From a virus: a stretch of 64,000 nt of DNA. The stretch lies in the IMG/VR virus record IMGVR_UViG_3300042393_000799. The stretch is one strand, 5' to 3'. The notes under the pieces were generated by a model. That model was given only the letters and a program-made list of their open reading frames with translations. It was not told where the DNA came from and made no database searches. Below, piece after piece: positions 12,534-63,292 of the stretch. The translations under genes and the position numbers were made by a program. Each line of letters opens with the position of its first letter. The first letter of the stretch is position 1.

Positions 12534-13286
12534 TTAGATGTTTTTTAGATTTTCAACCATCCAATCCAATTCTACTTGACTAGCTGCGTCTGAGATGGCA
12601 TTATCAGGATCTGGATGTGTTTCAATAAATACTCCATCATATTCAAAAATACGCGCAGCTAAAGAATATTGTTTTGCAAGTTTTCTGCTTCCACCAGTAA
12701 TACCATCACCTGACATTTGAGTTGAGTGTGTACAATCAAAGATAACTTTATCTGCAAATTGTTTCATAACATCAACACCTCTAAAATCTACAATTAATCT
12801 ATCGAAGCCAAATTGAGATCCACGTTCTGTAATCCATACTTGACATGTTGGATTTACTTCTTTGATCTTGGTAACAGCATGTTTCATTGCATCTGCAGAT
12901 AACCACTGACCTTTCTTAACGTTAATAATATCAAAGTGTTTTGCACATTCTATAAGAAGATCTGTTTGTCTACACAAGAATGCTGGAATTTGAATCACAT
13001 CTACTACATCTGATAATGGTAATGCTTGATCTGCAGTATGAATATCTGTAACAATTTTAAGACCTGGAAATTTATCTTTAACATTTCGCATGATCTGAAT
13101 ACCTTCGTCCAAACCTGGACCTCGATTAGAGTGAATTGAAGTTCTATTGGCTTTATCAAAGCTACCTTTAAGATACCAATCTTTTCCTTGCATTAAAGGA
13201 TATAGTGCATTTGCTACTTCTATGAAGTTGTCCTCGCTTTCAATGCTACAAGGACCTAGAATATATGTGTAATTTTCCATTTTCAT
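12534..13286 (-). CDS. kdsA: 3-deoxy-D-manno-octulosonate 8-phosphate (KDO8P) synthase
   Basis: conserved blocks GPCSIES, KGSFDKANRTSIHSNRGPGLDEG, ITDIH, VVDVIQIPAFLCRQTDL, NVKKGQ, ITERGSQFGFDRLIVD, FDCTHS match KdsA/DAHP-synthase family throughout. Confidence 0.88.
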   Translation of the reverse strand: MKMENYTYILGPCSIESEDNFIEVANALYPLMQGKDWYLKGSFDKANRTSIHSNRGPGLDEGIQIMRNVKDKFPGLKIVTDIHTADQALPLSDVVDVIQIPAFLCRQTDLLIECAKHFDIINVKKGQWLSADAMKHAVTKIKEVNPTCQVWITERGSQFGFDRLIVDFRGVDVMKQFADKVIFDCTHSTQMSGDGITGGSRKLAKQYSLAARIFEYDGVFIETHPDPDNAISDAASQVELDWMVENLKNI

Positions 13287-15311: not shown

Positions 15312-15911
15312 TTATTTATATGCTCTGATTGTGGAAATTTGAATTCCTTCGTGTTCTTGTTCTAATGATTTTACTAATACTAAATTAGCTTCATCATCAT
15401 CGTAAAATTGTAGGTCGCTATAACCCATATTGATCAATTCTCTAAACGCTTGTTTTTTACGATCTGATATACTACCTTTAAATTTATGTACTGAATCATT
15501 TACTGCAAAAATAAGATCTTTGTCGATTCTAAATCCAACATGTTCTCTTAACCATCTATAGATCATTTCTCTATCATCTCTTGCTGTAACAATTCCAACT
15601 GCGATACGTGATTTATAAGCTTCTTTGAATATGTCTAAGTAATGTTCAATCATTTGACCAGCTTTCATAATCTCTAATGATTTAAATTCATCAAAGTTTA
15701 ATTCATGATCTGCATGTTTTTCATAACTATTAAATTCCTCTGGTGTTAATGAATAACATTCTCCGGTTTTCTTATTGCAAACCTTAATCTTAGCTGAAGA
15801 AATAACTAATGTGTCGTCAAGATCAAACACAAGAATTTTTGAACCATGATATGGTTTTCCAGCTCTGTTTACCTCATTCAGGTATTCTGTGTAATTCTTA
15901 AGGTGTTTCAT
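15312..15911 (-). CDS. HAD-superfamily hydrolase with family N-terminal motif (MKHLKNYTEYLNE)
   Basis: DxDxT motif FDLDDTL near N-terminus; 199 aa. Confidence 0.6.
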   Translation of the reverse strand: MKHLKNYTEYLNEVNRAGKPYHGSKILVFDLDDTLVISSAKIKVCNKKTGECYSLTPEEFNSYEKHADHELNFDEFKSLEIMKAGQMIEHYLDIFKEAYKSRIAVGIVTARDDREMIYRWLREHVGFRIDKDLIFAVNDSVHKFKGSISDRKKQAFRELINMGYSDLQFYDDDEANLVLVKSLEQEHEGIQISTIRAYK

Positions 15912-15941
15912 CTTTAATTATACTAAAAAATCTAATAATGT

Positions 15942-16205
15942 TTATTTATTAGATTCTTGTTTTATTTTTATAGCAGCAATTTTTATATCAATTTTTGCTA
16001 TTTCTGCTTGCATAGATAATTTTTGAGCATTAAGTGATAATATTTCAGATTTTAATGGATCCTCTTCATTTCTCATTGCTTTTGCAGTTTCAACCGCTTT
16101 AGATTTAATGTCGTTTTTCTTTGAATCTAATTCTCTAACTTTAAGATTTAGGTCAGCTACTTTTTGAGCATCCTCAAATAATTGGAAAGTTTTCAGGTGT
16201 TTCAT
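15942..16205 (-). CDS. small coiled-coil protein, family-like N-terminus MKHLKTFQLFED
   Basis: 87-aa ORF. Confidence 0.4.
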   Translation of the reverse strand: MKHLKTFQLFEDAQKVADLNLKVRELDSKKNDIKSKAVETAKAMRNEEDPLKSEILSLNAQKLSMQAEIAKIDIKIAAIKIKQESNK

Positions 16206-16497
16206 CTTTTGGTATTTCTTTTTCTATTTCTAGAGTCCATAGCCTATTATTAGGTACTACGAATTTTCTTTCATGTCCAAAAACATAAAAAGTTGTTTTA
16301 TATATATTTTGTCTAACTATTCTAGCTTTCTTAGCGCCTTTAATATAAACAATATCGTCTACATTAAAATCATTACCCCATAAAAACTGCATACCAATAA
16401 CAAGATTAGCAATCATGTCTTTGAATGTAAATGAAATTATAGCTACTGCTGTCACCCAACCCCATTCTGATATGTATTGTCCTATTAATTCTTTCAT
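16174..16497 (-). CDS. hypothetical membrane-associated protein
   Basis: 107-aa ORF with hydrophobic N-terminal segment. Confidence 0.4.
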   Translation of the reverse strand: MKELIGQYISEWGWVTAVAIISFTFKDMIANLVIGMQFLWGNDFNVDDIVYIKGAKKARIVRQNIYKTTFYVFGHERKFVVPNNRLWTLEIEKEIPKDETPENFPII

Positions 16498-16982
16498 ATT
16501 AGTCCCATTGCACTTAGATTTTGTAAAACCACTTGTTGACTTAACATTACAACTTGTGAAGCTTCGATTTTGTCCATAAATTTGGCATTATCAATTTCTT
16601 CACGCTGTAATTGTCCTTTAGGTACCACTAGATCTTTAAGTCCTATTTTAGACAGGTTATCTATTTCAACTATAAAATAATAAATAACTTTATTATACTT
16701 ATACTTTCTAGAAGTTAAAACAAATGTATGTTCATTTTTGCTTATTAAAGATTTAGGAACTTTGATACCGAACTCTTCATAAGTTTCTCTGATAGCAGCA
16801 TCTAAATGTGATTCACCTTCTTCGATGCCACCTTTAGATATACCATAACCTGTTCCTTCTTTTCTACCTCTAGATTGACCTAACAAAATTTTACCATCAA
16901 ACACAATCGCAAGACCAGCTGAATATCTAGTGTCTAGATATTTCTCGTTGATAAATTGATCATATTTTTTTAGGTGTTTCAT
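16494..16982 (-). CDS. Nudix hydrolase with family N-terminal motif (MKHLKKYDQFINE)
   Basis: Nudix box GGIEEGESHLDAAIRETYEEFG (Gx5Ex7REUxEExGU). Confidence 0.75.
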   Translation of the reverse strand: MKHLKKYDQFINEKYLDTRYSAGLAIVFDGKILLGQSRGRKEGTGYGISKGGIEEGESHLDAAIRETYEEFGIKVPKSLISKNEHTFVLTSRKYKYNKVIYYFIVEIDNLSKIGLKDLVVPKGQLQREEIDNAKFMDKIEASQVVMLSQQVVLQNLSAMGLI

Positions 16983-17307: not shown

Positions 17308-17700
17308 TTATATATCGAGTTTATATTTTTCTTTAACTCTTTCACTAATTGGTATGGGATCACCATTCTCATCTATTCGTACAAACTTGATATTTGTACA
17401 TAATATAATTGATTGACTGCCTGAATATACGTTATGTGCTCTGGCTTCTAAATATAGCGTAATACTCGTTCTACCGATATTTAGCATTTTACCATAAATT
17501 TTTAATAGTTGACCTTCTTTTGCAGGTTTTTTAAACTCACACTTATCAATCATTACTGTAACCATTCTTGGTGTATCACACACTTGCATTGCATATCCTG
17601 CAGCTGCAGCATCTAACCATGCTAATAGTTTTCCACCAAAAAGATTTCCATGAAAACCCAAATCTGACTTTTTGATAGGGTGTGTTGTTATATGTTCCAT
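17308..17700 (-). CDS. hotdog-fold acyl-CoA thioesterase (YciA/4HBT-like)
   Basis: GNLFGGKLLAWLD motif characteristic of YciA-type thioesterases. Confidence 0.6.
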   Translation of the reverse strand: MEHITTHPIKKSDLGFHGNLFGGKLLAWLDAAAAGYAMQVCDTPRMVTVMIDKCEFKKPAKEGQLLKIYGKMLNIGRTSITLYLEARAHNVYSGSQSIILCTNIKFVRIDENGDPIPISERVKEKYKLDI

Positions 17701-17709
17701 TTATTAGTT

Positions 17710-18603
17710 TTACTTAATTGATTTTATCCAAGATAATAAGTTTGTTTCAGGTTTCCAACCCAATTGTTTAGTTATTTTTGCAATATCTGCAACAGAACGC
17801 ATAGGTTCCTCTCTTTTTTCTAAATGTTTGATTTCACCACCAAATGCTTCAGCTACTTCAATAACTTGAGTTTCTGTGCCAGATCCAACATTATAAATTG
17901 GCATTGTGGTCTTAAATTCGGCCTGACTACTCATTATAATAGCATTGACTACATCTTTAACATAAATCCAATCTCTGGTTTGTGCACCATCACCAGTTAC
18001 AGTAATAGGTTGATAAGATTCATATTGTTGTAAGAAAATAGGCACTGCACTTCGGTATCCACCAGTAGCTCTTTGACCTTCACCAAAGACATTAAAAAAT
18101 CTTAGAGCTGTACACTTAAATTGAGGTTTATTATAACTCATCATCATGTGTTCCATTTCCAATTTAAATTCGGCATAAGGACTCATTGGACTTGGTGTAT
18201 CACTCTCTTTTAGAGGCACTTGTTCTGAATCACCATAAACTGCAGCAGTGGATGCAGCTACCATTGAAGTAGCTCCCATTTCATAAGCCCAACTCATGAC
18301 TCTTCTACTTGCAACACATATACCTGTCCAATATTTCATTGGCTCTTCTAAACTTTCAGGTACACTAATAGGTGCAGCTAAATGAAATAGAGTATCAAAT
18401 TTATAAGTTGGCAATTTACCATTAGTAATATCTATGGCTTCAATAATTAGATTTGGATGTGGCTCTAAATTGTCAATTGATCCAGTACTGAAATTATCAA
18501 GTACAGTTACAAACCATCCATTATTTAATAGTTCTTTAACTAGATGTGAACCGATAAAACCAGCTCCACCTGTAACTACAGCTTTCATACTTCTTTTTGA
18601 CAT
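17710..18603 (-). CDS. NAD-dependent sugar epimerase/dehydratase (extended SDR)
   Basis: N-terminal Rossmann motif VVTGGAGFIGSHLV; SDR-epimerase length and architecture. Confidence 0.8.
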   Translation of the reverse strand: MSKRSMKAVVTGGAGFIGSHLVKELLNNGWFVTVLDNFSTGSIDNLEPHPNLIIEAIDITNGKLPTYKFDTLFHLAAPISVPESLEEPMKYWTGICVASRRVMSWAYEMGATSMVAASTAAVYGDSEQVPLKESDTPSPMSPYAEFKLEMEHMMMSYNKPQFKCTALRFFNVFGEGQRATGGYRSAVPIFLQQYESYQPITVTGDGAQTRDWIYVKDVVNAIIMSSQAEFKTTMPIYNVGSGTETQVIEVAEAFGGEIKHLEKREEPMRSVADIAKITKQLGWKPETNLLSWIKSIK

Positions 18604-19292
18604 ATAATTTTAATATTATTTCCTGCATGATAATGATCTCCTAAAAGAGACCATTTATTTGCATCTTGTTTAACCCACCAATATATATGAGCACCTTTAC
18701 CAGCACATGGCATTGTTACATCAAATCTTTCGAATTTTTCAGTCAACTGACCATTTAGTATCTCGTTTATATTAACCCATGTACCATCTAAATAATTATC
18801 ATCGACTATTACTATAGCACCTGCACCTAATTTGGCTTCAATGGCTTCGAATTCTCGCCAACCATGTAATGCACTAGGTAAAGAATCACGTAAATCCAAA
18901 TCCCATGAATCTAAATGAACAATATCTACATGCTCATCAAACCTCTTTAAAAATTGGACGGAGTCTTCAGTAAAAAATTCTACAAATTCCAAACCTAATT
19001 CTGCAAATGCTGTTTTAGATTTAGCTATTATAATAGGATCTATATCTACGACCCACATTTTACCACCAGTTACTAAAGCTATATTAGCAAAAAAAGTACC
19101 CATCATACCATCTTGCCATGATTGACTAGCTCCAGTTTCTATAATATTAATAGGACCAATAGCTTTTACTTTACCAATTATAGCGCTAACTATAGTATCA
19201 ATTTGTCTTGCTCTTTCAGGTCGACCTCCATTGGCTTCTAGACTAGTTTTATATTGATCTGCTAATCGATTTATTATCCAAAAATTATCCAT
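18585..19292 (-). CDS. putative SAM-dependent methyltransferase (Methyltransf_24/TylF-like), tentative
   Basis: IIETGASQS Gly-rich motif followed by acidic VVDID and HLDSWD blocks. Confidence 0.35.
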   Translation of the reverse strand: MDNFWIINRLADQYKTSLEANGGRPERARQIDTIVSAIIGKVKAIGPINIIETGASQSWQDGMMGTFFANIALVTGGKMWVVDIDPIIIAKSKTAFAELGLEFVEFFTEDSVQFLKRFDEHVDIVHLDSWDLDLRDSLPSALHGWREFEAIEAKLGAGAIVIVDDNYLDGTWVNINEILNGQLTEKFERFDVTMPCAGKGAHIYWWVKQDANKWSLLGDHYHAGNNIKIICQKEV

Positions 19293-22200
19293 ACAGTTCT
19301 TTATTAATTACATTTATAACTCTGTCCGATCCAATTGTTTTAGTACATTCAAATTGTCGGTGTGTACCTTTCCATAAAGGACACCAATTCCAATCACCTT
19401 TGTCAAATGTATCCCAACCCCAACAACCATGACATACTTGATGATTGTTAATATAAATGGCATCTGCAAATTCTACATAAGGATCTGTAAAGCCACTAAT
19501 AATAATTACTTTTGCTCCAAGTGCCCAAGCGAACCAACTAAGGCCAGAGCTGATTCCAATAAACAGTTCAGCTTCATTGATAGCTCCTGCTACTAATGCA
19601 AGCTCTTCTGGTAATTGTTTAACCCCTTTTAATTGACTACCTTCTTTACTAGCATGGTACACACTAATCTCTTTACTATTACACCAGTCAATGGTTTCTT
19701 GCCATCCAGTAGGATTATTCCAATACTTGGCTTGTGCGGTACTTTGGGTAGCAATGACAATGGAGCGTTTTTTTGCAGTAGACTTGATCAAGAATTCGCG
19801 CGCTAGTTGAGGTCTTTGTTCTACGTACTCAGTACCTAAGCGATCTGAGGCGATTTTCCCCAGGGGTATTTGTCTCCAGTCATATTTATGTTCAGCACGT
19901 TTCCATGGTTCTTCCATGGTGTAAAAGACTCCGAGTGTAATTAGCGCACCCTTGTTAGGCACTGACCAGTCAATGATGTCTATGCCCTTTGAGCTATACC
20001 ATGCTTTGTCAAACAGCCAGGGTTTGTGTGTCTTCACATATAATTTGCTAAGCTTATGTGTGTCTATCACTGTGTGCAGCTGTCCCATGAAGCTCAGTGT
20101 GTCTCCAAGTGATGAGCTCGCCATTTCCACTGTCAGTTCCTGGCCTTCCAGGCTCAGACGTTCTGAATGAACTAGTTGGTCATTACTGTAAACCTTAACA
20201 GTCCACTGAGTCCACCAATTTCTTGCGGGCTTGTACCAACTTCCAGCTTGCAGGTCTGTAGCGTTCCAGACTAGATCTTGGTTATCATAAAACTCGGCCC
20301 GTAATTGACCACTTCCAGTTGACTTGATCGTTAATTTCGGACCATCTTGATACTCTAATGTCCATTCAGGTTGTTTGTGTGTCGGTGGCTTTTGAGGGCC
20401 TCGTGGGGTAGTTAAACATTGTTGGTACCATTGGATATGTTGTACAGTGAAACGTTTTAGATCGTCGTCTGGGATATTTTTTCCTTGTGCCTCGGATGAT
20501 TTGAGTGTTTTGATTAATTGGTCAACATTTCCATGGAGATCATCTGTGAATGGGACAATGTAAGGTGTAAACATGTCCTTATATTGCTCTAAGTTTCTAG
20601 AGAATGTGATTAGACCATGACCGATTGCTTCACGTAGTGCGAGTGGACTACACTCCCATGTTGAGTTAAACATAAATGCGTCACATGCACTCATAAAGAC
20701 ATCAACGTCGTTTCTCTCACCCCATATAGTAACATTACTTGGCAGCTTCTTCATAATTGGTCCCCAATATTGTTCGAAGTTTTCTGCTTGATTACCCACG
20801 AAATGAAAGTGATACTTTCCAGGAAATTGAGCTTCTACAATTCTAGCAATATCAACACCTTCTGCTTGATTCTTTCCTTGTGTCCAAAGACCTACATTTA
20901 ATATGTGAGTCTTATCGATAGCTAAACCTAATTTAGCTCTTGATTTTGCTTTATCAAATGCTGAAGGTTTTTGATTTAATATAGGATATTCTACAACTGG
21001 TTTTAAACCATCTCTATTTCCAAATGTTTCTAAATGATATGGAGTACACATCATGTACATATCTGGATCATTGATCTTATTGTTTGGATCAAACCAAATA
21101 TTGTGAGATGTTTCTACAATCTTCCATTGTTTATTGTAAAGCCATTCCATTGCACTTTGATCAATTTTATTAAATCCATCAAATGATTCTGGACATTCAT
21201 CAATATGAATAATATCTGGGTTTATTTCTAAAATCTTTGCTTTTAATCTTTCACCTCGCTCAGTGATGTCTATTGAATTTAAAAATCCTAATGAATGAAA
21301 TCTAGCACCTAATTTTTCTATAAGTTGATCTCGTTGTACATTGTAAATATCACTATATTGAGTATACTCTACTAAGTGGATTTCAAAGTCTTTTACATCT
21401 AACATAGCTTCAACTCTCTTTAAGACAAATTGAGGCATGCCTCCTGTACTTAAATGTGGTGCTAGGAATAGTAATTTAGTTTTGTTTGTCATTTCTTTGG
21501 TGTTAGGTTTCATATAGACATGGTCTACTAATAAGTCATTATACAAATCTATAACTGCATCGAATGTTTTATCCACTGTAGGATGACACTCGAATGTTGG
21601 TTTATATTCTAAGCAATGCAACTGTGGAGGAATAGCTTGAATAGTTCCATGTTCAATAATATTGTATTTCATATTACTAGAACAGAAAATATCGCAACTT
21701 CCACCAATATATTTGTATTTATAATCTTGTGAACCCTTTCTATAAGGTGCTCTTAATTTTGGATCTATTGAACTACCCAATTGAATAATATTTACATCAG
21801 TAGTTCCTGCAATGTGCAATAAACCAGAATCCATAGTAACTATAGCTCTAGCTTTATGATTCATCATCCATCTTAATTCAGCTGGATCATTTGTTGGATC
21901 ATTAAGTAAGTTAACTCCGAGTTTTATATTCAAATTCATTACTGGTTTGTCTACTGAGAATGTACCAACTTCATGAGAATCTCGACCAACTGCAACTACT
22001 GGAATACCTCTATCGTTTAATCTATCAACAAGTTCTTGCCACTTATCTTGATCCCATGTTCTACTTGCCCAAGTATAAGTTGGGTGTATTATAACATAGT
22101 TTTCAAATCCAAGATTTCTTTCACGTTCAATATACAAATCCATTTCCATTTCATCTTGAGTTAAACTAAACCCTAATGAAACTGCATGAAATTGTCTAAT

Positions 22201-22488
22201 ATCCATATTAGACGATCTAAATTCTACTTGTTCACCTCTTAAATCATATGCTTTACCAACAATTGGCATAAACGTACGATAAACCTTTATATTAGGGTCA
22301 TATCTAAGAGGGTCATCCAACTTTAGTGCTTTCGACACTAGTGGATGACCCTCGAATAAGAAAGGTTTACTAGAAAATACTATAAGCTGTGACTCACACG
22401 CTTTAGCTAACTTCCTAAGTGTAGGAATTGCTGCTATCGTGTCACCTAATGCAGGCGTATCTATACATATCGCAACTTGTTTTGACAT
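19285..22488 (-). CDS. multidomain glycosyltransferase (GT9 heptosyltransferase-like N- and C-terminal domains flanking a GT4 domain)
   Basis: N-term ICIDTPALGDTIAAIPTLRKL (GT9); middle FLAPHLSTGGMPQFV and EAIGHGLI (GT4/GT1); C-term GT9-like GISSGLSWFAWALGAKVIII. Confidence 0.75.
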   Translation of the reverse strand: MSKQVAICIDTPALGDTIAAIPTLRKLAKACESQLIVFSSKPFLFEGHPLVSKALKLDDPLRYDPNIKVYRTFMPIVGKAYDLRGEQVEFRSSNMDIRQFHAVSLGFSLTQDEMEMDLYIERERNLGFENYVIIHPTYTWASRTWDQDKWQELVDRLNDRGIPVVAVGRDSHEVGTFSVDKPVMNLNIKLGVNLLNDPTNDPAELRWMMNHKARAIVTMDSGLLHIAGTTDVNIIQLGSSIDPKLRAPYRKGSQDYKYKYIGGSCDIFCSSNMKYNIIEHGTIQAIPPQLHCLEYKPTFECHPTVDKTFDAVIDLYNDLLVDHVYMKPNTKEMTNKTKLLFLAPHLSTGGMPQFVLKRVEAMLDVKDFEIHLVEYTQYSDIYNVQRDQLIEKLGARFHSLGFLNSIDITERGERLKAKILEINPDIIHIDECPESFDGFNKIDQSAMEWLYNKQWKIVETSHNIWFDPNNKINDPDMYMMCTPYHLETFGNRDGLKPVVEYPILNQKPSAFDKAKSRAKLGLAIDKTHILNVGLWTQGKNQAEGVDIARIVEAQFPGKYHFHFVGNQAENFEQYWGPIMKKLPSNVTIWGERNDVDVFMSACDAFMFNSTWECSPLALREAIGHGLITFSRNLEQYKDMFTPYIVPFTDDLHGNVDQLIKTLKSSEAQGKNIPDDDLKRFTVQHIQWYQQCLTTPRGPQKPPTHKQPEWTLEYQDGPKLTIKSTGSGQLRAEFYDNQDLVWNATDLQAGSWYKPARNWWTQWTVKVYSNDQLVHSERLSLEGQELTVEMASSSLGDTLSFMGQLHTVIDTHKLSKLYVKTHKPWLFDKAWYSSKGIDIIDWSVPNKGALITLGVFYTMEEPWKRAEHKYDWRQIPLGKIASDRLGTEYVEQRPQLAREFLIKSTAKKRSIVIATQSTAQAKYWNNPTGWQETIDWCNSKEISVYHASKEGSQLKGVKQLPEELALVAGAINEAELFIGISSGLSWFAWALGAKVIIISGFTDPYVEFADAIYINNHQVCHGCWGWDTFDKGDWNWCPLWKGTHRQFECTKTIGSDRVINVINKELYG

Positions 22489-38857: not shown

Positions 38858-39334
38858 TTATTCTACGTCTTTTAATTCTGTTCTTAATCTACCAATTGCA
38901 CCTTCTAAAGTATTATAGACTGGAATGTTGTGTCGACTGCAAACTATATCTACATTTCCTTTGCGCCAAAATTCATCTGGACAACAAACAATCATTTTTT
39001 CAGATGCAGCATGCATACCAAGTTCTAATAAACTGATTGGACTCTTGGTTTCTGGAGAAAAGTACATGAAAATAATATCGCATTCATCTAACTTATTCAT
39101 TTCCCAATTTACTTGTCCACTGAATTGTGGATTAGATTCTTTTTGTTCCCATGAACTATCCCAATCATCTCTACGAGGATTGAAAAAAACCAAGTTTTGA
39201 CGATCTTTAAATAATTCAGGAATTACTGCTTGCCAATCTTCTGCTTTTCCCATTTCAATAGAACCTGCTAAAAATATTTTAACATGATGATCGTTATAAT
39301 ATGCATTTTTTGGTTCTGGTTTAATTACTTCCAT
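38858..39334 (-). CDS. nucleoside 2-deoxyribosyltransferase-like protein
   Basis: IFLAGSI...FNP...ECDIIFMYF...SLLELGMHAASEKMIVCCPD pattern of the family. Confidence 0.5.
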   Translation of the reverse strand: MEVIKPEPKNAYYNDHHVKIFLAGSIEMGKAEDWQAVIPELFKDRQNLVFFNPRRDDWDSSWEQKESNPQFSGQVNWEMNKLDECDIIFMYFSPETKSPISLLELGMHAASEKMIVCCPDEFWRKGNVDIVCSRHNIPVYNTLEGAIGRLRTELKDVE

Positions 39335-39593
39335 TTTCTTTGTGTATTGAATTTTTACAATTTCCTTTATGGGATCCCCATTGAGTATTACCCATTCCGA
39401 CTACAATATATTCACAACCTTCAAGAGTGTAGACTCTATAATTTTGATCAGAGTATTGTGAATTACTATCAAGTTCCATTCGATGCGGATTCGGTTGAGT
39501 TGAAACTTGTACATTACCTTCGCAGCTTGTAACCACAAAGGCTACAAGCGCTGCAAAGATTAATATTAATAATGTTACATTTTTTCTGTTCAT
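39321..39593 (-). CDS. small lipoprotein
   Basis: signal peptide + lipobox VTSC. Confidence 0.45.
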   Translation of the reverse strand: MNRKNVTLLILIFAALVAFVVTSCEGNVQVSTQPNPHRMELDSNSQYSDQNYRVYTLEGCEYIVVGMGNTQWGSHKGNCKNSIHKENGSN

Positions 39594-41173
39594 TATGAAT
39601 TAGTTAAACGTTCACGAATTTCTGTTAGTGTAGTTTGGTTTTCGAATTGGCCATCTTTATAGATAGTTTTTAATTTACCAGTGGCTTCATTTTCCCAAGT
39701 ACATTGATCTTCTAATAAGAAACATGTTTCGTCTCCGGCAACTCTTAATAAACCTTTTGCAGATTTCTTAATACCGTCATCAGTGATTGGATCTTTAAAG
39801 ATTTCACGACCTGTGATGATTTCTTCTGAATGTGTATAGTTACCATTCTCGTCTTTAACAGTTCTAAAATGTTCTTTAACTTCAACATAAGTTGCTTTCA
39901 TTGCAAAACCAAAAGTATCTCTAGTGTTATATTGGTATGTAAAACTTCCAACGCCTAATACAATATTTGTACTTGCGAAACCTTTTGCTTCTAATCTTGT
40001 AAAGATTTGTTCTGCACGATCTAACGTTATTGAATCTCCGTAGATTGCTCCAATATGAGAATCAAGAACTTTGTAACCTTGTTCATTGATAGTTCCACCG
40101 AATACATCCCAAAGTAATTCAATAACTCCTTTTACTTCTGGTTTGTTTAAATATTCATCGGTAGGATTAACTTCTGCTACTCCACCTAAGTAAGCAACCA
40201 CATCATTATCATGGTGCGCGTTTGTTTTAATAACACTTGCGCCGCAAATAATATCTACTGGATCACCAGAGTCGGGTCTAATAACTACCTTACCATCACG
40301 AGCTAAAATCTCTTCTTTCAAGGTAACAATATGTTCAGTACAAACTTTCCATAAGTCCCAAGTATCTGATACGATTGAAAGAATTCCTGTTGGATATGTT
40401 TCCATCAAGTTTCTAAATGTTCCAACCTCATCTTCTTTAGATCCAGCACACATAACTGAGTGTTCAGTTGCATTCACAGATCCAGCAACAAATCCAGTTT
40501 CTCCATAGAATTTACGAGCTCCAAAGATTGCTGGTAAACTGTCTGAACCTGAGAAACTTGTTAAGTGACCCAATCCTGAACTAATAGTTGCATCAATAGA
40601 ATCTAAACCTCTCATTGAAAAATCATGTGCTTGCCAATCTACGAACCAACCTTTTTCAGCATCGGTTTTTTCTTGCCATGATGTAAATAATTTACGGTAA
40701 GCATGTGCAATAGTTGCTGAAGTCATTGGTTTCCATAACAAGTTAGAAATAATTGTTTCTAAGTAGTTTGTAATCCAATAGAAATCTGGATGTGTATTGT
40801 AAATTGTCAATACAGGAACTCTCATTGGTACTAAAGAACCTTCTTCGATTGTTTTTACCACGATTGGTAAATAACCTAAATCATGTAATGCTTCAAAGTG
40901 ACTAACATCATAGTCAGTATTTAAGTACATTGACAATTCACGTTTCATTTCGCCGCAAACTTCATCTTTAGGTTTGCTAAAGAAATCTTTGTCAAATGCT
41001 TCGTGAATTTGTTTGATTACCATTTGTTGTCCAAATGATACTAATTGGTCGCATCCTTTAGGAGCATACTTATTACTTCTAGGTGTGAAGTTTGAATAAA
41101 CCAACGTTGTTCCTTTTGGATATTGTTGGTGATGTCCTGTTTTGTAACCGTCTGTTAAAAATAATGGGTTCAT
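39593..41173 (-). CDS. nadV: nicotinamide phosphoribosyltransferase-family enzyme (NadV/NAMPT, or the Namat variant)
   Basis: N-terminal signature LFLTDGYKTGHHQQYP and full-length (526 aa) similarity pattern to NAMPT. Confidence 0.82.
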   Translation of the reverse strand: MNPLFLTDGYKTGHHQQYPKGTTLVYSNFTPRSNKYAPKGCDQLVSFGQQMVIKQIHEAFDKDFFSKPKDEVCGEMKRELSMYLNTDYDVSHFEALHDLGYLPIVVKTIEEGSLVPMRVPVLTIYNTHPDFYWITNYLETIISNLLWKPMTSATIAHAYRKLFTSWQEKTDAEKGWFVDWQAHDFSMRGLDSIDATISSGLGHLTSFSGSDSLPAIFGARKFYGETGFVAGSVNATEHSVMCAGSKEDEVGTFRNLMETYPTGILSIVSDTWDLWKVCTEHIVTLKEEILARDGKVVIRPDSGDPVDIICGASVIKTNAHHDNDVVAYLGGVAEVNPTDEYLNKPEVKGVIELLWDVFGGTINEQGYKVLDSHIGAIYGDSITLDRAEQIFTRLEAKGFASTNIVLGVGSFTYQYNTRDTFGFAMKATYVEVKEHFRTVKDENGNYTHSEEIITGREIFKDPITDDGIKKSAKGLLRVAGDETCFLLEDQCTWENEATGKLKTIYKDGQFENQTTLTEIRERLTNS

Positions 41174-41186: not shown

Positions 41187-41267
41187 TTAATTATAGAGTA
41201 AATATACATAAAAAACCTGACATAAAAAAATATCAGGTGATTTATTTTAAAAAAGTTATTAACAATC
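41187..41267 (-). promoter_or_regulatory. repeated intergenic cassette
   Basis: ttaattatagagtaaatatacat...acctgacataaaaaaatatcaggt...ttattttaaaaaagttattaacaatct. Confidence 0.65.
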
Positions 41268-41717
41268 TACAAGATTTGCTAAAACACTCTTAACTATACC
41301 GATTTCTGCACGACCTTGGTATCTTTTGTTAAATTCGCCAATAGTTTTACCTTGTAATGCTTGTGGATTTGTAACTATTCCACTAAATTCTTGCATAATT
41401 TCTGTAAGAGCATCTACAATTTCTTGAGGTTCCATTTGTGCTGGCATATATCTTCTTAAGATTGCACACTCTTCTGATTCTTTTTTAGACAATTCTGGTC
41501 TATTTGCCAAATCATACATTTTAATGGATTCCTCACGTTGCTTGATTCCTTTATTAATTATTTTAATAACCTCTTCATTCGTTGCAACCCAAGTTCCATT
41601 TCCCTTTTCAGCATTCGTGATTGCTGCTTTAATACTATTAAGTGCCATTTTGGCTACTTCGTCTTTTGCTTTCATTGCAGTTATAAAGTCTGCATTTATT
41701 TGTTCTCTAATTATCAT
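41259..41717 (-). CDS. YqeY/GatB-domain protein
   Basis: REQINADFITAMKAKD...LRRYMP pattern of YqeY family. Confidence 0.6.
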   Translation of the reverse strand: MIIREQINADFITAMKAKDEVAKMALNSIKAAITNAEKGNGTWVATNEEVIKIINKGIKQREESIKMYDLANRPELSKKESEECAILRRYMPAQMEPQEIVDALTEIMQEFSGIVTNPQALQGKTIGEFNKRYQGRAEIGIVKSVLANLVDC

Positions 41718-42552
41718 TGTCTATGTTTTTAGTTGGGTTTATTAATCCTTTAATGAACCATCTGTCTTGTGTAAATGTTGGAGTTTCTACAACTTGCCAT
41801 TTGTTTCTCATTACAATTTGAGTAGGGTCTATTACATGTGTTTCACCATCATTAATAAACTCTTTGGTTTTTACAAGTACTGGAACTTCCACCTTTGCAA
41901 TTACTGCACCTCGTTTTAGACGAAAATCATAGTCATTCCAATTGATTCCTTTTTGGAAGATCAATTCTTGCATGTCACTTGTTTTTTTACCATGTAATTC
42001 TTTAGTACTATAAAGACTTTGAGCAACTGAAGAAATTGAATTTCTTACAGCGTCTTGTTGTCTCCAGATAAAATAGTTTTCTACCTCATCAATAAATGGA
42101 ATTTGAAATGCTCTTGCGTCGAATTCAGCCATTTTGAATTTTTCAATATGTTCCGGTTCTAAAAAGATCATGCTATTTTTCATGTATCTCATTAACCTAA
42201 GTTTATTGAATTCTGCAGTGGCCATAGAAGCAGCAACTGATACCATTTTTTGTAGGTTGTTGTCAAACCAAGCGTGAGTTCCTAGGTCATCAAAGTCTGT
42301 TAGAACTAAACTAATCTCATCTGATTGTACATAACCAAATTTAGCACCTTGAATGTTTTTACATAAATATGCAGTAGTTGCATTCATGTCTTCAATAAGT
42401 CCTTGGTCAAATGGTCTCTCTAATCCTTTCGTATAGGTGTGAAAGGCTTTTCCGTCAATACGGATAATTGTAAATGTTCTCCTTGGGAGTTTGATTCTAG
42501 TTCTATCTTCGTAGAACTCTTTCATGCGATCGCCTAATGCATCGTTTTTCAT
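41707..42552 (-). CDS. Thg1-like 3'-5' nucleotidyltransferase (tRNA-His guanylyltransferase family)
   Basis: family motifs RIDGKAFHTYTKGL and GYVQSDEISLVL (cf. Thg1 RLDGRNFH / AYGQSDEYSF). Confidence 0.75.
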   Translation of the reverse strand: MKNDALGDRMKEFYEDRTRIKLPRRTFTIIRIDGKAFHTYTKGLERPFDQGLIEDMNATTAYLCKNIQGAKFGYVQSDEISLVLTDFDDLGTHAWFDNNLQKMVSVAASMATAEFNKLRLMRYMKNSMIFLEPEHIEKFKMAEFDARAFQIPFIDEVENYFIWRQQDAVRNSISSVAQSLYSTKELHGKKTSDMQELIFQKGINWNDYDFRLKRGAVIAKVEVPVLVKTKEFINDGETHVIDPTQIVMRNKWQVVETPTFTQDRWFIKGLINPTKNIDNDN

Positions 42553-44331: not shown

Positions 44332-44826
44332 CTATTTGTTTAAAATTCTTATTGCTCTATTTGTGCATTCTTTAGTTAATCCATAACCAATATCGATACA
44401 ATCTGGATGATTAATATTGGTCGATGTTTGTACAAAGTTCATTCGTTGACTCTTTAACATATCCGTGTCATCATCAAGAATAACGTAATTAGTTATTTCA
44501 GGTTGTCTATCGAGAATTGACTGTATTTCATCTCCACGAACCATTTCTGGGCCACCTTCTAAATCATGGTTCCATCTAAGATCTGGTGTAATTCCAATTA
44601 TTTCTCCAGGATATTGACGTTGTTTCCACATTCTATGTAGTCTTTCCAATCCCATGTGTCTCCATGAAGAACTAATAACTAATTTTGCTCCGGTTTCATC
44701 AATGATTCTACCTAGATTTTCTACAAATTCAGGATGGAATATTCCACCGAAATCATCATGTCCTTGAGGAATTACATTTAATACACCGTCAAAATCTAGA
44801 AAAATAACCTTCATCTTATTTAACAA
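44332..44826 (-). CDS. HAD-superfamily phosphatase of the RNA-repair-associated (HAD_SAK/PNKP-like) type
   Basis: VIFLDFDGVLN at N-terminus; small single-domain HAD. Confidence 0.5.
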   Translation of the reverse strand: MLNKMKVIFLDFDGVLNVIPQGHDDFGGIFHPEFVENLGRIIDETGAKLVISSSWRHMGLERLHRMWKQRQYPGEIIGITPDLRWNHDLEGGPEMVRGDEIQSILDRQPEITNYVILDDDTDMLKSQRMNFVQTSTNINHPDCIDIGYGLTKECTNRAIRILNK

Positions 44827-45032: not shown

Positions 45033-45596
45033 TTATGGTTTATAAATTACTACCGACACTTTCATGTCTTTTAATTCTGTTTGAATAATCCTTTTAATTC
45101 TATTCCAATCTCCACCTGCTAATCCTGCTCCAATCTTTGGCAATCCAATATGTTTACCTTCAAATTGAAAATTGATCTTACGCATACAAAGAGTTAATGC
45201 CTCATAATCTAAAGGTTTTGAAACTCCATCGGTATGATTCTTACCATATCTGAATTGAGTGTATGAATTTACAACTGATAATTCAGGTTCATTCCTTTTA
45301 TTATCGGCGTCTTCTAAAGACCAGATTGTATTTTGACCAATGACGAATGTTTGCCAATCGATACATCCGAGCTTTTCAATGGTTGCTCCCCAAGTTTCCA
45401 TTTCAAAACGGTCAACTCCAAACGCTTTTGCCATTTGCGGTGCTATTCCAGCTCCCATATTTGACAAGCAATTACAACCATGTGTAATTACATCAAACTT
45501 TCCCTGTTTTGCTAGTGCAATTAAATCACCTTCTATTTCTTGATAATTTGTATCAACATCTATCATCGATTTCATAAATTTGTTTAATTCTCCCAT
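45033..45596 (-). CDS. Macro-domain (ADP-ribose-binding/processing) protein
   Basis: ITHGCNCLSNMGAGIA and GLPKIGAGLAGG blocks. Confidence 0.65.
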   Translation of the reverse strand: MGELNKFMKSMIDVDTNYQEIEGDLIALAKQGKFDVITHGCNCLSNMGAGIAPQMAKAFGVDRFEMETWGATIEKLGCIDWQTFVIGQNTIWSLEDADNKRNEPELSVVNSYTQFRYGKNHTDGVSKPLDYEALTLCMRKINFQFEGKHIGLPKIGAGLAGGDWNRIKRIIQTELKDMKVSVVIYKP

Positions 45597-46228: not shown

Positions 46229-46444
46229 TTATATTAAATTTAATTGTGTTAGTTCTTCAATGGCAGCATCGAATGCTTCTTGCCATGTTCTGTATAAATA
46301 CCAATCTCTTACTTCAATTTTTTCATAGTTACCAAAGTGTTCATATTTGTATATGTCAAATGCAAACTTTGGAGCACTTGTACGGTCTACTTCTATTTCT
46401 ATAACGTAACCATGCTGTGTAAATAAAGAATCTATTGTATACAT
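46229..46444 (-). CDS. hypothetical small protein
   Basis: 71-aa ORF. Confidence 0.3.
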   Translation of the reverse strand: MYTIDSLFTQHGYVIEIEVDRTSAPKFAFDIYKYEHFGNYEKIEVRDWYLYRTWQEAFDAAIEELTQLNLI

Positions 46445-47376
46445 TATATTACTTTAAATGCAGTTGTGTTTGTTTTTACATCATATTCATTATCAGCAAT
46501 ATCTCTATGAGAATTTGTTGTGTAAATACGTTCGAAATATTTGTTTAGCTCTGTAAAACCAGCACTAAATATTCCATGAGTAACTACTAAATAAATTTTA
46601 GCACTTGGTCTGCTTGCTTTAATAGCTTTAGCTAATTCAATAAAAGTTCTACCACCATCACAAATATCATCAATGATTACATATTTCATATCATCATTAA
46701 CTGAGTTAGGGTCTCCGATAGATCCTGGTAAGTTTGGTACTTCTGTTTTAAGAATGTTACCAGTTCTCATATCTCTAACTTTGTTTGCCGTAACAATATT
46801 TTGGATTTGAAACTTCTTAGCAACATCAAAGATTTTCTTGTATGCACCAGCATCTGGGCTTACTAAACAAATTCTTTCTTGAGCATCTCTCTTATTATCA
46901 ATATCTGTAAGTGCATATTTAACTACTGTATGATTATCTGTTTTCTCATAGTTATTTAAACATGCTTCTAAAACATCTGAATGTGGATCCAATGTAATTA
47001 CTGTTATGAAGTTTAAAGAGTTAATGATTGGACAAATAACTTGTTTCAAATAGTTAACACCACCGTCAACAAATTTACGATCTGAACGAGCTCCCATGAA
47101 GTATGGAACGTAAAGTGCGATTTCTCGATTTGGTTTAATATTTCTGATTGCTGCTGTTGCACAAATAATTAATTCTAAGTCCTTAAAACTATTTAAACGT
47201 GAACTGATTTTTACAGCATCTTCATATATCATTAAGTCATTCCAATCAATAAGGTCTACTGTTTGTTGACCATCTGGAAATTGACTAATTTTGTATTTAA
47301 TGTCTGATTTTTCTGGATTAACTAAGTCTAATGTTATCATCTTTAAGTTGTTTTTAATTATATGTAAATATACCAA
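46444..47376 (-). CDS. prs: ribose-phosphate pyrophosphokinase-family enzyme (Prs, or the ADPR-pyrophosphokinase Adps variant)
   Basis: PYFMGARSDRK, TLDPHS, VSPDAGAYKK, PRTase motif VIIDDICDGGRTF. Confidence 0.8.
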   Translation of the reverse strand: MVYLHIIKNNLKMITLDLVNPEKSDIKYKISQFPDGQQTVDLIDWNDLMIYEDAVKISSRLNSFKDLELIICATAAIRNIKPNREIALYVPYFMGARSDRKFVDGGVNYLKQVICPIINSLNFITVITLDPHSDVLEACLNNYEKTDNHTVVKYALTDIDNKRDAQERICLVSPDAGAYKKIFDVAKKFQIQNIVTANKVRDMRTGNILKTEVPNLPGSIGDPNSVNDDMKYVIIDDICDGGRTFIELAKAIKASRPSAKIYLVVTHGIFSAGFTELNKYFERIYTTNSHRDIADNEYDVKTNTTAFKVI

Positions 47377-57643: not shown

Positions 57644-58675
57644 TTAGTGTGCTTTTTCGCCTTCTTCAGAATCTTTTGCCATTAAAGCTTCAACAATACC
57701 AATTACAGCTAATAACATGGCAACATTTGATATAATTGATGCTACTGTACCTAAACCTGGCACTGCATGTAATAAAGCATGTTTTGCAGCTCCTTTAACT
57801 TTAACTTCAGCAATAATTCCAATAATACCTGCAAGTGCAATAAACTCAAATGGTCCTGGTGCTCCTGCTAATTCAGTAGCATAATATGATAATTTACCTA
57901 GAGTTCCTTTAGCAACTTTTTCAGCAGCTTGTTTAACTTTATCTAATAAATTAAACGGTGGAATATGGTGCATTTTATGAGCGATTGCAGATACAAATGG
58001 AATACCAGCTGCATGTTCATCGCTTTCTTGTACCAATTCTCTGAAATCAATATCGCCATTAATAATAGCTTCATTTATAGAATCTAATATTGCAATTTCA
58101 AAAGCTTCTTTAACATCTTCACTTGCAGCCTGTTGAGCTGCAGTTGCAGTATCTTTAACAAATCCACTAGTAATCCATCCAACTGTTGCAGATACAACCT
58201 GTTTACCTTGTTTAACTTCTTTTAATAAAAGATTTTTACTTTCTTCTGATTTCTTTTCAATAGCTGCAGAAATTTCTTTAGCCTTAGCTTGTACACCTGA
58301 TTGATATGCAGCTTTTGCAGCAGTCCATGCGGTGTCAACCCATTCTTTTAATTTCTCAACTATAAGTTTAATAATAGAAGCAATTTTACCACCTAATTTG
58401 ATGATAACTTCTTGTGATTTTGATAATGCTTGTTTACCTTTTTCTTTTGCAACCTCTACAGCAGCATCAAATTTAGCTTTCATTTTGCTAATTAGGTTCT
58501 CTTCATTCAGATTATCAAAACCTTCATCAAATATACCAAACTCAACTATAAATAGAGCTTCATTCATAATTGGTTTAATTTCTTCGAACTGTTCAAGTAC
58601 ATTAACTATTACTTGTCGTCTAGATTCTACTAATCTTTTATTAGCAATGAACCCTTCATAACTTTTTAATTTCAT
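57644..58675 (-). CDS. protein with family-like N-terminus (MKLKSYEGFIANK), Ala/Lys-rich helical body and C-terminal hydrophobic segments
   Basis: 343-aa ORF. Confidence 0.45.
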   Translation of the reverse strand: MKLKSYEGFIANKRLVESRRQVIVNVLEQFEEIKPIMNEALFIVEFGIFDEGFDNLNEENLISKMKAKFDAAVEVAKEKGKQALSKSQEVIIKLGGKIASIIKLIVEKLKEWVDTAWTAAKAAYQSGVQAKAKEISAAIEKKSEESKNLLLKEVKQGKQVVSATVGWITSGFVKDTATAAQQAASEDVKEAFEIAILDSINEAIINGDIDFRELVQESDEHAAGIPFVSAIAHKMHHIPPFNLLDKVKQAAEKVAKGTLGKLSYYATELAGAPGPFEFIALAGIIGIIAEVKVKGAAKHALLHAVPGLGTVASIISNVAMLLAVIGIVEALMAKDSEEGEKAH

Positions 58676-61969: not shown

Positions 61970-62662
61970 TTATCTTGATGAAAATTTTCTTTGTAAGTCC
62001 AATGTTTCGAAAAATGGATTTAATCTAACGTATGTACTATTTGATCTTTGAATATCTGTAGCATTTTCACATAAACATGCATCTGCTGGAAATATACCTT
62101 TTTTATTTATAAAATTTAAGATTTCTTGGGCACCTTTGGGTGTTATTATATATCCATATGCGCCTCTAAAAGTGCTTCCAGTTACAGACTTATCTCCATA
62201 AAATTTACTAATAGGGTGTTTTTTAACTCCACTAGTATAAAGTTTGATAGCATCATTATAAGCTTTAAAGTGTTCATGTTCTGTAACAGCACCTGAATTA
62301 TTAAAGGGTAAATATGCATCTAAATGACATGCATTTTCTATTAAGTGTAGTATTTCTCTAGGATCTCTAACTAAAACAGCATCTTGTTCAAGAATTAAAA
62401 AAGGTTGATCTTGTTTAGAGCACTCGTCCCATAATAAATAATGACTTGCTAAACAACCGATAGTACCATCGGTCCAATCTTCCATATTAACATATGCTGA
62501 GGGTTTTGCATTATAAGATTTTAAAACTTCAATGCCTTTTCTGCCTACAACTCCATCAAATAATTCATAGTCGATATCGAATTTGTTCAAAGACTTTATG
62601 GTATCTTTTACCATGGTCTCTGAGAATTCATTGCCCTTTAGATAAATTATATGTGTTTTCAT
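61970..62662 (-). CDS. family GT25 glycosyltransferase (LPS core glycosyltransferase-like)
   Basis: HIIYLKGNEFSE...YELFDGVVGRKG...GTIGCLASHYLLW...FLILEQDAVLVRD pattern of GT25. Confidence 0.65.
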   Translation of the reverse strand: MKTHIIYLKGNEFSETMVKDTIKSLNKFDIDYELFDGVVGRKGIEVLKSYNAKPSAYVNMEDWTDGTIGCLASHYLLWDECSKQDQPFLILEQDAVLVRDPREILHLIENACHLDAYLPFNNSGAVTEHEHFKAYNDAIKLYTSGVKKHPISKFYGDKSVTGSTFRGAYGYIITPKGAQEILNFINKKGIFPADACLCENATDIQRSNSTYVRLNPFFETLDLQRKFSSR

Positions 62663-62904
62663 TTGTTGTAATATTTATATATGTATCTAATAAAGCTGGC
62701 TAGTTAAATGAATAAAATAACAGGATGCTGATTTGCTTTTTCCAATAAAAGTTTTTAAATTTGCTGGAAGCATCCTTTATATTTTAAAAATACGGAATAC
62801 AGTTTGTTTGAGTAAAAGTCAAAGTTTGTAAATTTGCTGTATGTATTCCAATATGGTCAGGTTTCTGTTTTTGCTTACCAGTGTGTTTACCAATTTCACC
62901 ACTC

Positions 62905-62975
62905 CTCAATTTTTCATAGTTAATTTGTTGAGGAGGTAGGACTCGAACCTACAATGTACCGGTTCTGATTGCTTT
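62905..62975 (-). other. tRNA-like 3' fragment (T-arm + acceptor-like strand) with no complete cloverleaf
   Basis: rc ...GTAGGTTCGAGTCCTACCTCCTCA followed by a hairpin using the same CTCCTCA; no D/anticodon arms found. Confidence 0.3.
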
Positions 62976-63062
62976 TTAATTGCTGTAAGAAACCTTTAAT
63001 ATTTTAAAGAACTTTGTTATTTGATAATTATACTTGATCAATTAAAAAAGTTTCATTTTTTG

Positions 63063-63147: not shown

Positions 63148-63154
63148 AATTTTG

Positions 63155-63228: not shown

Positions 63229-63292
63229 ATGTATATGTTCATTATTTTCATGTGTTCATTGGCAATGAACATTCATTTATAATGAACACTAG

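Follow-up and report, generated by a model that had tools for sequence, protein, structure and literature searches.

A shared N-terminal tag resembling the T4 capsid targeting sequence on Nudix, HAD, and other proteins of uncultured T4-related phages

Two enzymes with a common N-terminal leader

We analyzed a 64,000-nucleotide stretch of viral DNA (IMG/VR record IMGVR_UViG_3300042393_000799; "the window" below means this whole stretch), which has a G+C content of 31.7% and carries nearly all of its genes on the minus strand. Genes for a haloacid dehalogenase (HAD)-superfamily phosphatase and a Nudix hydrolase lie between positions 15312 and 16982, and their products share an N-terminal sequence of 13 residues, which we call the tag. 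An initial annotation had proposed that this sequence targets the enzymes to the capsid so that they are injected into the host; the positions of the open reading frames (ORFs), the Nudix box, the FDLDDTL motif, and the start MKHLK.Y..(Y/F)(L/I)NE of both enzymes are as it described. The two genes and their leaders are as follows:

15312..15911, minus strand: HAD-superfamily phosphatase, 199 aa; leader MKHLKNYTEYLNE; contains FDLDDTL
15873..15911, minus strand: HAD leader, 13 codons; conservation followed over 81 orthologues
16494..16982, minus strand: Nudix hydrolase, 162 aa; leader MKHLKKYDQFINE; Nudix box GGIEEGESHLDAAIRETYEEFG
16944..16982, minus strand: Nudix leader, 13 codons; absent or present among orthologues

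The Nudix protein combines the box GX5EX7REUXEEXGU with the alpha/beta/alpha sandwich fold of the superfamily and matches Pfam NUDIX PF00293 (E value, 1.3e-12; 48.3 bits against a cut-off of 21.1). Box residues G51, E57, R65, E66, E69, E70, and G72 are invariant in 55 homologues. In its AlphaFold2 (AF2) model (predicted local distance difference test [pLDDT] score, 92.8), the fold starts at residue 17 and residues 1 to 20 are less confident (71 to 76), which places the tag outside the Nudix fold. Foldseek searches with this model gave a probability of 1.0 to many Nudix structures, and none of the subfamilies RppH, NudC, ADPRase/NadM, Ap4A hydrolase, and MutT was assignable by NCBIfam, PDB sequence, or Foldseek searches. 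NCBIfam matches reached 16 to 29 bits, far under cut-offs of 103 to 449, the top match in the PDB sequence search was Dcp2 (2e-5), and Foldseek template modeling (TM) scores were alike (~0.6) for Ap4A hydrolases, RppH, NudC, Dcp2, and NadM. T4 NudE gave a weak match (5.4e-4) and was the sole T4 protein matching the Nudix protein in the two T4 stretches compared; the Nudix domain also matched PHROG 15528, a portal family (9.4e-8).

All four catalytic motifs of the HAD protein (D30-L-D32-D-T34, T109, K152/K153, and D171-D173) are invariant in 35 homologues. No Pfam family scored over its cut-off, and the leads on function are weak and conflicting: PHROG 415, annotated as "polynucleotide kinase," matches at 1.7e-12, and the top Foldseek neighbors of a mediocre structure model (pLDDT, 75.6) are 3-deoxy-D-manno-octulosonate 8-phosphate (KDO-8-P) phosphatases (E value, 5e-3; TM score, 0.34). 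PDB sequence searches, Foldseek, and hhalign against T4 PseT failed to yield a specific assignment; the hhalign comparison gave a probability of 33%, with the likeness confined to HAD motif I. The suggestion that the two enzymes destroy host nucleotide second messengers or NAD-derived signals found nothing specific in its favor: the Nudix protein has no subfamily, and the leads for the HAD protein point in different directions.

Both enzymes could instead be metabolic helpers, the first a NudE/ADP-ribose-type Nudix for NAD salvage and the second a KDO-8-P phosphatase working with KdsA. Such ordinary roles are possible because a KdsA homologue, an NAMPT gene, and a phosphoribosyl pyrophosphate (PRPP) synthetase-like gene are present in the window, the first of these near the HAD gene, whose product has KDO-8-P phosphatases as its best structural neighbors; a homologue of T4 Tk.4 and the weak match to T4 NudE also fit. 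However, the similarity to KdsC is weak at the values given above, the Nudix protein falls under every subfamily cut-off, and metabolic roles leave unexplained why the tag is present in 120 of the 120 closest HAD orthologues. We regard this explanation as somewhat unlikely; it concerns function only and is compatible with packaging of the enzymes.

The tag recurs across the window

The motif proved to be real and wider than the four carriers listed in the initial annotation: 14 proteins of the window carry it, and a 15th carrier adjoins the window. The pattern ^MK.{1,3}[KR].[FYW]..[FYW] matched 14 of 110 non-overlapping window ORFs, and 2000 per-protein shuffles gave a mean of 0.05 matches and a maximum of 2. 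In 19,902 residues, the core [FYW][EDQTG].[FYW][LIVA].E is found at nine N-termini and at only two other positions. The 13-residue consensus is M-K-x-[ILV]-K-x-[FY]-x-x-[FY]-[ILV]-N-E. Besides the two enzymes, the following proteins have the tag or a variant of it (L numbers denote loci on other contigs, with coordinates where given), and one neighbor is listed for its position:

162..1112, minus strand: 316-aa protein; leader-like start MKHIRTYEDYNDR; no E at position 13
1121..2692, minus strand: 523-aa protein; leader MKKIKLFEEFVSE
3757..4059, minus strand: 100-aa protein; leader MKKIKLFEQFLAE; 78% identical to L071 61-363
4062..4865, minus strand: 267-aa protein; MKIVKLFDDYLDM; Asp replaces Glu13
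4880..5221, minus strand: 113-aa protein; leader MKHTKLFEEFINE
5424..5762, minus strand: 112-aa protein; leader MKHTKLFEEFLNE
5769..6098, minus strand: 109-aa protein; leader MKHIKLFEQFLNE; 81% identical to proteins on 234-236 kb IMG/VR contigs (L054, L038)
6113..6691, minus strand: 192-aa protein; leader MKRVKLFEEFLNE
6694..6966, minus strand: 90-aa protein; degenerate leader MKYAKPFEAFANK
7684..8487, minus strand: 267-aa protein; leader MKKLKSFDQFLNE; 43% identical to leader-bearing L071 2095-2934
15942..16205, minus strand: 87-aa protein; half leader MKHLKTFQLFEDA; MK..K.F..F present, no [LI]-x-E at 11-13
16174-16497: 107-aa membrane protein with an MscS beta-domain (PF00924, 8e-6); no tag motif
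57644..58675, minus strand: 343-aa protein; variant leader MKLKSYEGFIANKRLVE; cut predicted before SRR

Ten of these genes are arranged in tandem at 162-8487, with a tagless glucosaminidase gene (7000-7587, PF01832) among them, and the mature parts of their products are unrelated. A leftward metagenomic extension of the window shows that the next gene is tagged too (L008 9482-10210); this 15th carrier encodes a 242-aa Zeta_toxin/AAA_33 P-loop kinase that starts MKYIKLFEEFVSE. C-terminal residues 428-521 of the 523-aa protein have homology to a leader protein of 213 aa whose gene directly follows that of the portal in L157, L159, and L210. The tag of the 267-aa protein at 4062-4865 ends in Asp (MKIVKLFDDYLD) with a Met directly after it, and a metagenome gene caller began the counterpart of this gene (L008 4723-5490) at that Met, losing the tag; automatic annotation may therefore hide some tags.

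The motif had also been ascribed to the small gene between the two enzymes and to the 343-aa gene, and both statements hold in part. Two genes lie between the enzymes; the 87-aa product has the MK..K.F..F half of the motif and lacks (L/I)NE, and the 107-aa product is free of it. The 107-aa gene sits between the 87-aa gene and the Nudix gene, overlapping both; its synteny is kept in relatives, as is that of the 87-aa gene on a 260,917-bp relative. The 343-aa protein has a variant leader that is one residue shorter, with [LIV]-x-E at residues 15-17; homologues starting MKNLLTYEDFMLVE↓SRR and MKRILSYEEYMIFE↓AQR (the arrow, here and below, marks the cut, which is predicted except in T4 proteins) are encoded in L225, L288, and L235, at a distance of 3-4 kb upstream of the portal gene.

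Tagged genes in tandem, highly variable clusters (10 in the window and 12 in L036) are what recombination at common 5' ends would yield, and the shared start could thus work at the nucleic-acid level, by enhancing translation initiation or by serving as a homology handle in the shuffling of cassettes, and encode a functionless peptide. The codons differ among copies, however, for Leu (TTA, CTA, CTT, CTG, and TTG) as well as for Phe, Asn, and Glu, and the 40 nucleotides upstream of tagged genes are unrelated among copies; conservation thus resides in the peptide and not in a DNA element. Substitutions are conservative (F/Y, I/L/V, and E/D). K5, Y7, Y10, N12, and E13 hardly vary among 81 HAD orthologues of equal length, and aliphatic residues are kept at positions 4 and 11, while positions 6, 8, and 9 are hypervariable (entropy, 2.2-2.8 bits). 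This pattern fits one recognized face of a short helix and makes a nucleic-acid function scarcely credible, although shuffling may occur as a consequence of the shared tag.

Correspondence with the T4 targeting signal and cut site

In bacteriophage T4, the first ten residues of internal protein (IP) III suffice for packaging; targeting depends on residues 4 and 7 of the signal and processing on residues 8 and 10, and when residue 10 is Asp, cleavage is prevented while targeting persists (PMC9026906). The 267-aa window protein at 4062-4865 has its Asp at the equivalent position. T4 ipII and ipIII start MKTYQEFIAE↓A, and ipI starts MKTFKEF...ITE↓A. With a shift of three residues, Nudix Y7, F10, I11, and E13 correspond at identical spacing to T4 Y4, F7, I8, and E10; the HAD counterparts are Y7, Y10, L11, and E13. 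Like the T4 signal, the tag lies at the extreme N-terminus (residues 1-13), outside the folded domain, and is common to proteins with unrelated mature parts. For both enzymes, a cut is predicted after Glu13, which would leave a 149-aa Nudix enzyme beginning KYLDTR and a 186-aa HAD enzyme beginning VNRAGKPYHGSK.

The same putative cut-site consensus is found in the capsid proteins of the lineage to which we tentatively assign the window phage (see below). They start M(A)NLINE↓AEI or MYLINE↓QEI, and T4 gp23 is cut at FLTE↓AEIGG; the 65-residue propeptide of gp23 appears to be reduced here to 5-7 residues that still end in [IL]-N-E. Cut-site profiles read F95%-[I/V/L]-N69%-E↓[A/S] for the tags and L77%-I91%-N-E↓[A/S]-E for the capsid proteins, a consensus whose P1 and P2 positions are partly imposed by the regular expressions that collected the tags and capsid N-termini. 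The start M(A)NLINE↓AEI occurs in L133 4123-5517, L066 6130-7482, L302 25025-26677, and ~100 other loci; a variant, MANLINS (9 loci), lacks the Glu.

Tagged genes accompany T4-type head genes

A search of IMG/VR with a degenerate DNA pattern of the tag matched at least 120 stretches, and the tag-bearing contigs are 4 to 246 kb long, with G+C contents of 25 to 44%. At least 231 unique ORFs in these loci have the tag, frequently arranged in tandem (12 in L036), and they form 127 families after removal of the first 16 residues; in an alignment of 113 family representatives, conservation is confined to the tag. Matches to T4 head proteins in the tagged loci reach 1e-36 for gp20, ~1e-9 for gp21 (by phmmer), and ~1e-10 for gp23. 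The gene order is gp55-like, gp4-like, one gene, portal, [tagged gene], protease, [tagged gene], and capsid protein, and the gene just before the portal is gp2-like where Pfam annotation exists. Pfam searches of two further contigs identified Portal_T4, Peptidase_S77 (PF03420), Gp23, Phage_T4_gp2, T4-gp15, and Gp44_lid, as well as a DnaB-type helicase and DNA polymerase B. Some contigs with the gp21-family protease also bear tagged genes (L058 with L174, and L052 with L176). A protein of 585-694 aa (L133 6054-8138, L066 3834-5915, and L306 11750-13597) has the gp21-type protease domain as its N-terminal part and probably fuses protease and scaffold, and Tenacibaculum phage PTm1 has a similar protein annotated as "prohead core scaffolding protein and protease."

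A portal of this type is present in >800 IMG/VR stretches. The portal-protease and protease-capsid intervals yielded 60 distinct N-termini, all but ~5 of which have the tag or a recognizable variant (e.g., MKIIKTFEDFISE↓DALRAGEDSK). This concentration bears on the idea that the tag is a peptide signal unrelated to the capsid, such as a degron, a regulatory or chaperone handle, or some other localization signal. Tagged genes are spread over several genome regions, no common promoter was found, and the link to packaging is a sequence analogy only, all of which would suit such a signal. The enrichment between portal and capsid genes, the cut-site consensus in common with the capsid N-terminus, and the match to the T4 residues for both targeting and processing argue against it; moreover, because the peptide is not hydrophobic, the tag is not a Sec or lipoprotein signal. 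We consider a non-capsid signal very unlikely.

In T4, the portal-protease-capsid interval is occupied by gp67 and gp68, core proteins that are cut into fragments (PMC9026906). The most conserved tagged proteins occupy this gp67/gp68 slot, where a conserved protein of ~112 aa is encoded, and many tagged proteins are small, with no recognizable domain. Tagged proteins could therefore reach the prohead and be cut there as core or scaffold accessories that serve head assembly and are then degraded or kept in the head, rather than as enzymes to be delivered. Intact catalytic motifs in the Nudix and HAD proteins and in the tagged NMNAT-like, kinase, ATP-grasp, GNAT, and Acb1-like proteins speak against this, as such enzymes have no evident role within a prohead; in T4, proteins tagged in this way, foreign enzymes included, reach the cell (PMC9026906). 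A role restricted to assembly seems quite improbable to us.

Most of the 113 family representatives have no Pfam domain. The annotated ones include RimK and other ATP-grasp proteins, a GNAT, a cytidylyltransferase/NMNAT-like protein, and the Zeta_toxin/AAA_33 kinase. One tagged 2H phosphoesterase (L047 2337-2882; MKAVKLFEEFILE↓KKGDSYEYGCAMLYF) matches Pfam Acb1 at 28.5 bits against a cut-off of 27 and scores equally for 2_5_RNA_ligase2; its counterparts are L100 3460-4008, L021 3747-4295, and L112 8460-9008. Acb1 is an anti-CBASS (cyclic-oligonucleotide-based antiphage signaling system) nuclease, and the Acb1 gene of T4, 57B, is a neighbor of ipI. The tagged Acb1-type protein on a related contig is one indirect point in favor of an anti-defense theme.

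The closest relatives of the lineage capsid protein are those of the 462-kb LR756500 phage (48%), Lak megaphages of Prevotella (37%), other huge phages, and Tenacibaculum phages (29-34%). With a T4-type head module and T4-type replication genes, the lineage is placed by these comparisons as a Bacteroidota-associated branch of the T4 superfamily. Marine "far-T4" genomes with predicted Bacteroidetes hosts, described by Tominaga et al. (PMC7198788), are comparable. Flavobacterium phage immuto, which shares a thioesterase, was rejected as a candidate relative because, with its DNA polymerase A and DnaB, it is not T4-like.

The tag is a removable module

Among the best 120 Nudix relatives (52-98% identical), 56 have an N-terminal extension of at least 15 residues, 49 of these with the motif; 63 of the 120 are tagless and start M-LETRY or M-ELK-x-KY, directly at the first strand of the core. 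One relative (P0062, 274 aa) carries the tag and then ~100 extra residues ahead of the Nudix core. The best 120 HAD relatives (77-96% identical) all have the tag. More distant HAD orthologues include one with a degenerate tag, MDIKNYNELNE (L103), and one with none, starting MLKEKYTTDKILIFDIDD (L030), in a phage with many tagged genes. DNA and protein searches with both enzymes in 50,697 phage records found no close relative among cultured phages and, as homologues, only tagless proteins in the huge phages of Al-Shayeb; the nearest, in LR756500 (HAD) and LR756504 (Nudix), have only a few residues ahead of the catalytic core. The tag thus behaves as a removable module, gained and lost among orthologues.

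A tagless Nudix orthologue (61% identical) lies beside ribonucleotide reductase and DNA polymerase B genes on a 76,601-bp contig (JGI 3300059473) that also encodes Portal_T4, Peptidase_S77, and Gp23. Near it are genes for a 70-aa protein matching Acb2_Tad1_hairpin (an anti-CBASS/anti-Thoeris sponge family) and for an Hc1 histone-like protein.

Proposed assignment of the window phage to the lineage

Several observations connect the window with the T4-type lineage. Tag-bearing contigs encode orthologues of window proteins with 50-88% identity, and a syntenic block (thioesterase - 96 aa - Nudix - MscS-like ... HAD - 606 aa) is found on a 148.8-kb contig. The portal-linked homologues of the 343-aa and 523-aa proteins described above add to this link. 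A Nudix protein with 98% identity is encoded on a 260,917-bp ENA contig (ERZ27272104, k141_203066) with identical local gene order. The sample that yielded the 76,601-bp contig, with its tagless Nudix and T4 head genes, also holds contigs of the window phage, as do JGI 3300042472 and ENA samples ERZ272720xx. The T4-type genes found in the window itself are limited to homologues of gp30 ligase and Tk.4 and a weak homologue of NudE. An IMG/VR search with the Nudix protein for the phage's own head module found only two distant loci, and P0170, on a 259,130-bp contig, was considered as that module and turned out to belong to a different phage.

A number of findings weigh against the interpretation that the tag directs packaging in this phage. 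The gp21-family protease is found on lineage contigs, whereas the window is without a head module, and the portal of the 260,917-bp relative is not among the 120 portal matches listed. Four window carriers (162-1112, 4062-4865, 6694-6966, and 15942-16205) lack Glu at position 13, and tagless orthologues are common, so the tag is dispensable for the enzymes; the partly imposed cut-site consensus mentioned above belongs here as well. Neither the late-promoter signal TATAAATA nor any 7-mer was meaningfully enriched upstream of 231 tagged ORFs compared with 2478 other ORFs. No virion proteome or isolate with the tag was found; the isolate with the closest capsid protein, Tenacibaculum phage PTm1, has a head module without the tag, so its proteome cannot be borrowed.

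Proposed role of the tag

On balance, the tag is probably this lineage's counterpart of the T4 capsid targeting sequence, given the matching residues. Most likely, the Nudix and HAD proteins would enter the prohead, lose the tag by a cut after Glu13, and be injected. The proposal of the initial annotation that the motif targets the capsid thus gains strong comparative support from the T4 residues, the link to head genes, the cut site, and the modularity of the tag, and delivery of the enzymes follows as a prediction; docking, cleavage, presence in the virion, ejection, and the substrates of the enzymes are what we infer.

The phage would belong to a T4-related ("far-T4") group infecting Bacteroidota. 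The tag, which is probably a short amphipathic helix, would act while the head is being assembled, docking proteins on the scaffolding core forming on the portal. After closure of the shell, a gp21-type serine protease (Peptidase_S77) would cut past the Glu of [ILV]-x-E and remove the tag, and the same protease would trim the 5-7-residue M-A-N-L-I-N-E peptide off the capsid protein. The mature proteins would stay in the head once it is filled with DNA and would pass into the host together with that DNA. This packaging mechanism predicts that the host receives the Nudix and HAD proteins as ready-made, injected enzymes, which would act ahead of phage gene expression.

More tentatively, with somewhat less than even confidence, we suggest that an abundant group of uncultured T4-related phages of aquatic Bacteroidota loads dozens of proteins per genome by one tag, which orthologues switch on and off. 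One and the same enzyme would thereby be delivered in finished form by some phages and made only after infection by others. Their cargo would include Nudix and HAD enzymes, a zeta-toxin-like kinase, NMNAT-like proteins, ATP-grasp ligases, GNAT proteins, and an Acb1-type anti-CBASS phosphodiesterase.

Other genes of the window

The window contains a group of NAD and nucleotide genes, namely, those for NAMPT (39593-41173; PF04095 and NAMPT_N), a PRPP-synthetase-like protein (46444-47340), a nucleoside 2-deoxyribosyltransferase-like protein (38858-39334), and the T4 Tk.4 homologue (45033-45596; A1pp-phosphatase motif; 1.5e-18). No NMNAT is encoded in the window; an NMNAT-like protein of related contigs is tagged (L041 6396-6992 and L022 7917-8522). 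Surface-polysaccharide genes surround the Nudix and HAD genes (12534-13286, 17308-22488, and 61970-62662) and include the KdsA homologue, a 4HBT thioesterase, an NAD-dependent epimerase, a 1067-aa GT9+GT1 glycosyltransferase, a GT25 protein, and a methyltransferase matching an FkbM-annotated gene of a Microcystis phage. RNA-repair-type genes encode Thg1 (tRNA-His guanylyltransferase family), HAD_SAK_2 ("Swiss Army Knife" RNA repair HAD), and YqeY. Positions are as follows:

12534-13286: KdsA homologue (DAHP_synth_1), ~2 kb from the HAD gene
41707-42552: Thg1
44332-44814: HAD_SAK_2
41259-41717: YqeY

The RNA-repair genes, together with the tagged kinase and the tagged HAD protein, hint at a tRNA-repair theme. 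The kinase/HAD pair resembles T4 Pnk in single motifs only; a "split polynucleotide kinase" made up of the tagged AAA_33 kinase and the tagged HAD protein stays speculation because the PseT matches are confined to the P-loop and motif I. Within a few kilobases of the window's right end (62663-64000), breaks occur in several independent assemblies, and the end of the 260,917-bp relative would fall near window coordinate 57.6 kb; these breaks could mark a genome terminus or a repeat.

Significance and comparison with known systems

Injected proteins are normally learned by mass spectrometry of purified virions, which is impossible for uncultured phages. If the tag acts like the T4 signal, a sequence rule would list the injected proteins of thousands of environmental phage contigs, and the whole injected proteome, a reservoir of first-strike anti-defense proteins, would be readable from metagenomic sequence. 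The tagged proteins would form a shortlist of candidate first-strike counter-defense factors because they include enzymes for nucleotides, NAD, and RNA ends and one Acb1-like protein. The switching of the tag among orthologues would be a natural experiment on when pre-made delivery pays. The T4 signal, until now described for T-even phages, would be extended to a distant branch with a capsid propeptide of 5-7 residues. A literature search with tag sequence strings gave no match among the papers searched.

In T4, a short cleavable N-terminal address is common to diverse injected proteins (PMC3012670, PMC9026906). The T4 IP signal is likewise a short N-terminal propeptide on otherwise unrelated proteins, of the form M-K...aromatic-x-x-aromatic-[IL]-x-E; it is modular, packaging foreign enzymes by itself, the protease that cuts it has homologues on lineage contigs, and its carriers are variable and clustered. 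The ten-gene tagged block and the adjoining kinase gene resemble the variable internal-protein loci of T-even phages. The T4 signal has 10 residues, whereas the lineage tag has 13, with three additional residues following MK and Asn strongly favored at P2; its carriers are three IPs in T4 versus at least 15 proteins in 74 kb here, including recognizable enzymes; and the hosts here are Bacteroidota. Packaging has been shown in T4, whereas the tag described here is known from sequence alone. T4 NudE (e.1) and PseT bear no targeting signal.

T4 Alt is an ADP-ribosyltransferase that enters the prohead core, undergoes trimming by gp21, and is ejected along with the DNA (PMC9026906, PMC5694885). It differs in having a 7-residue propeptide that is not of the IP type and a C-terminus that is trimmed too, and it is unrelated to the Nudix and HAD proteins. 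In phiKZ, 201phi2-1, and SPN3US, many head-internal proteins are cut after Glu by a T4-related prohead protease, and diverged paralogues among the ejection proteins keep conserved N-termini (PMC5694885), features resembling those proposed for the lineage described here. Those propeptides, however, are mostly >100 residues long and are cut at A/S-x-E, no short universal tag is present, and the hosts are Proteobacteria.

Iyer et al. (2022; PMC9503650) predicted that phage Nudix, Macro, and ADP-ribosyltransferase proteins are packaged through fusion with MuF, portal, or protease proteins or by their late-gene context. Those systems are alike in that a phage Nudix would travel in the virion and act at infection; the basis there is fusion or neighborhood, while the present case concerns a standalone enzyme with a predicted cleavable tag that is on or off among orthologues. 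The present case differs from those of T4 and Iyer et al. in its phage lineage and the phylum of its hosts, in how the tag is built (13 residues, with Asn at P2), and in how many and how diverse its putative carriers are. It differs further in the standalone housekeeping-type enzymes among these carriers and in the presence or absence of the tag among close orthologues.

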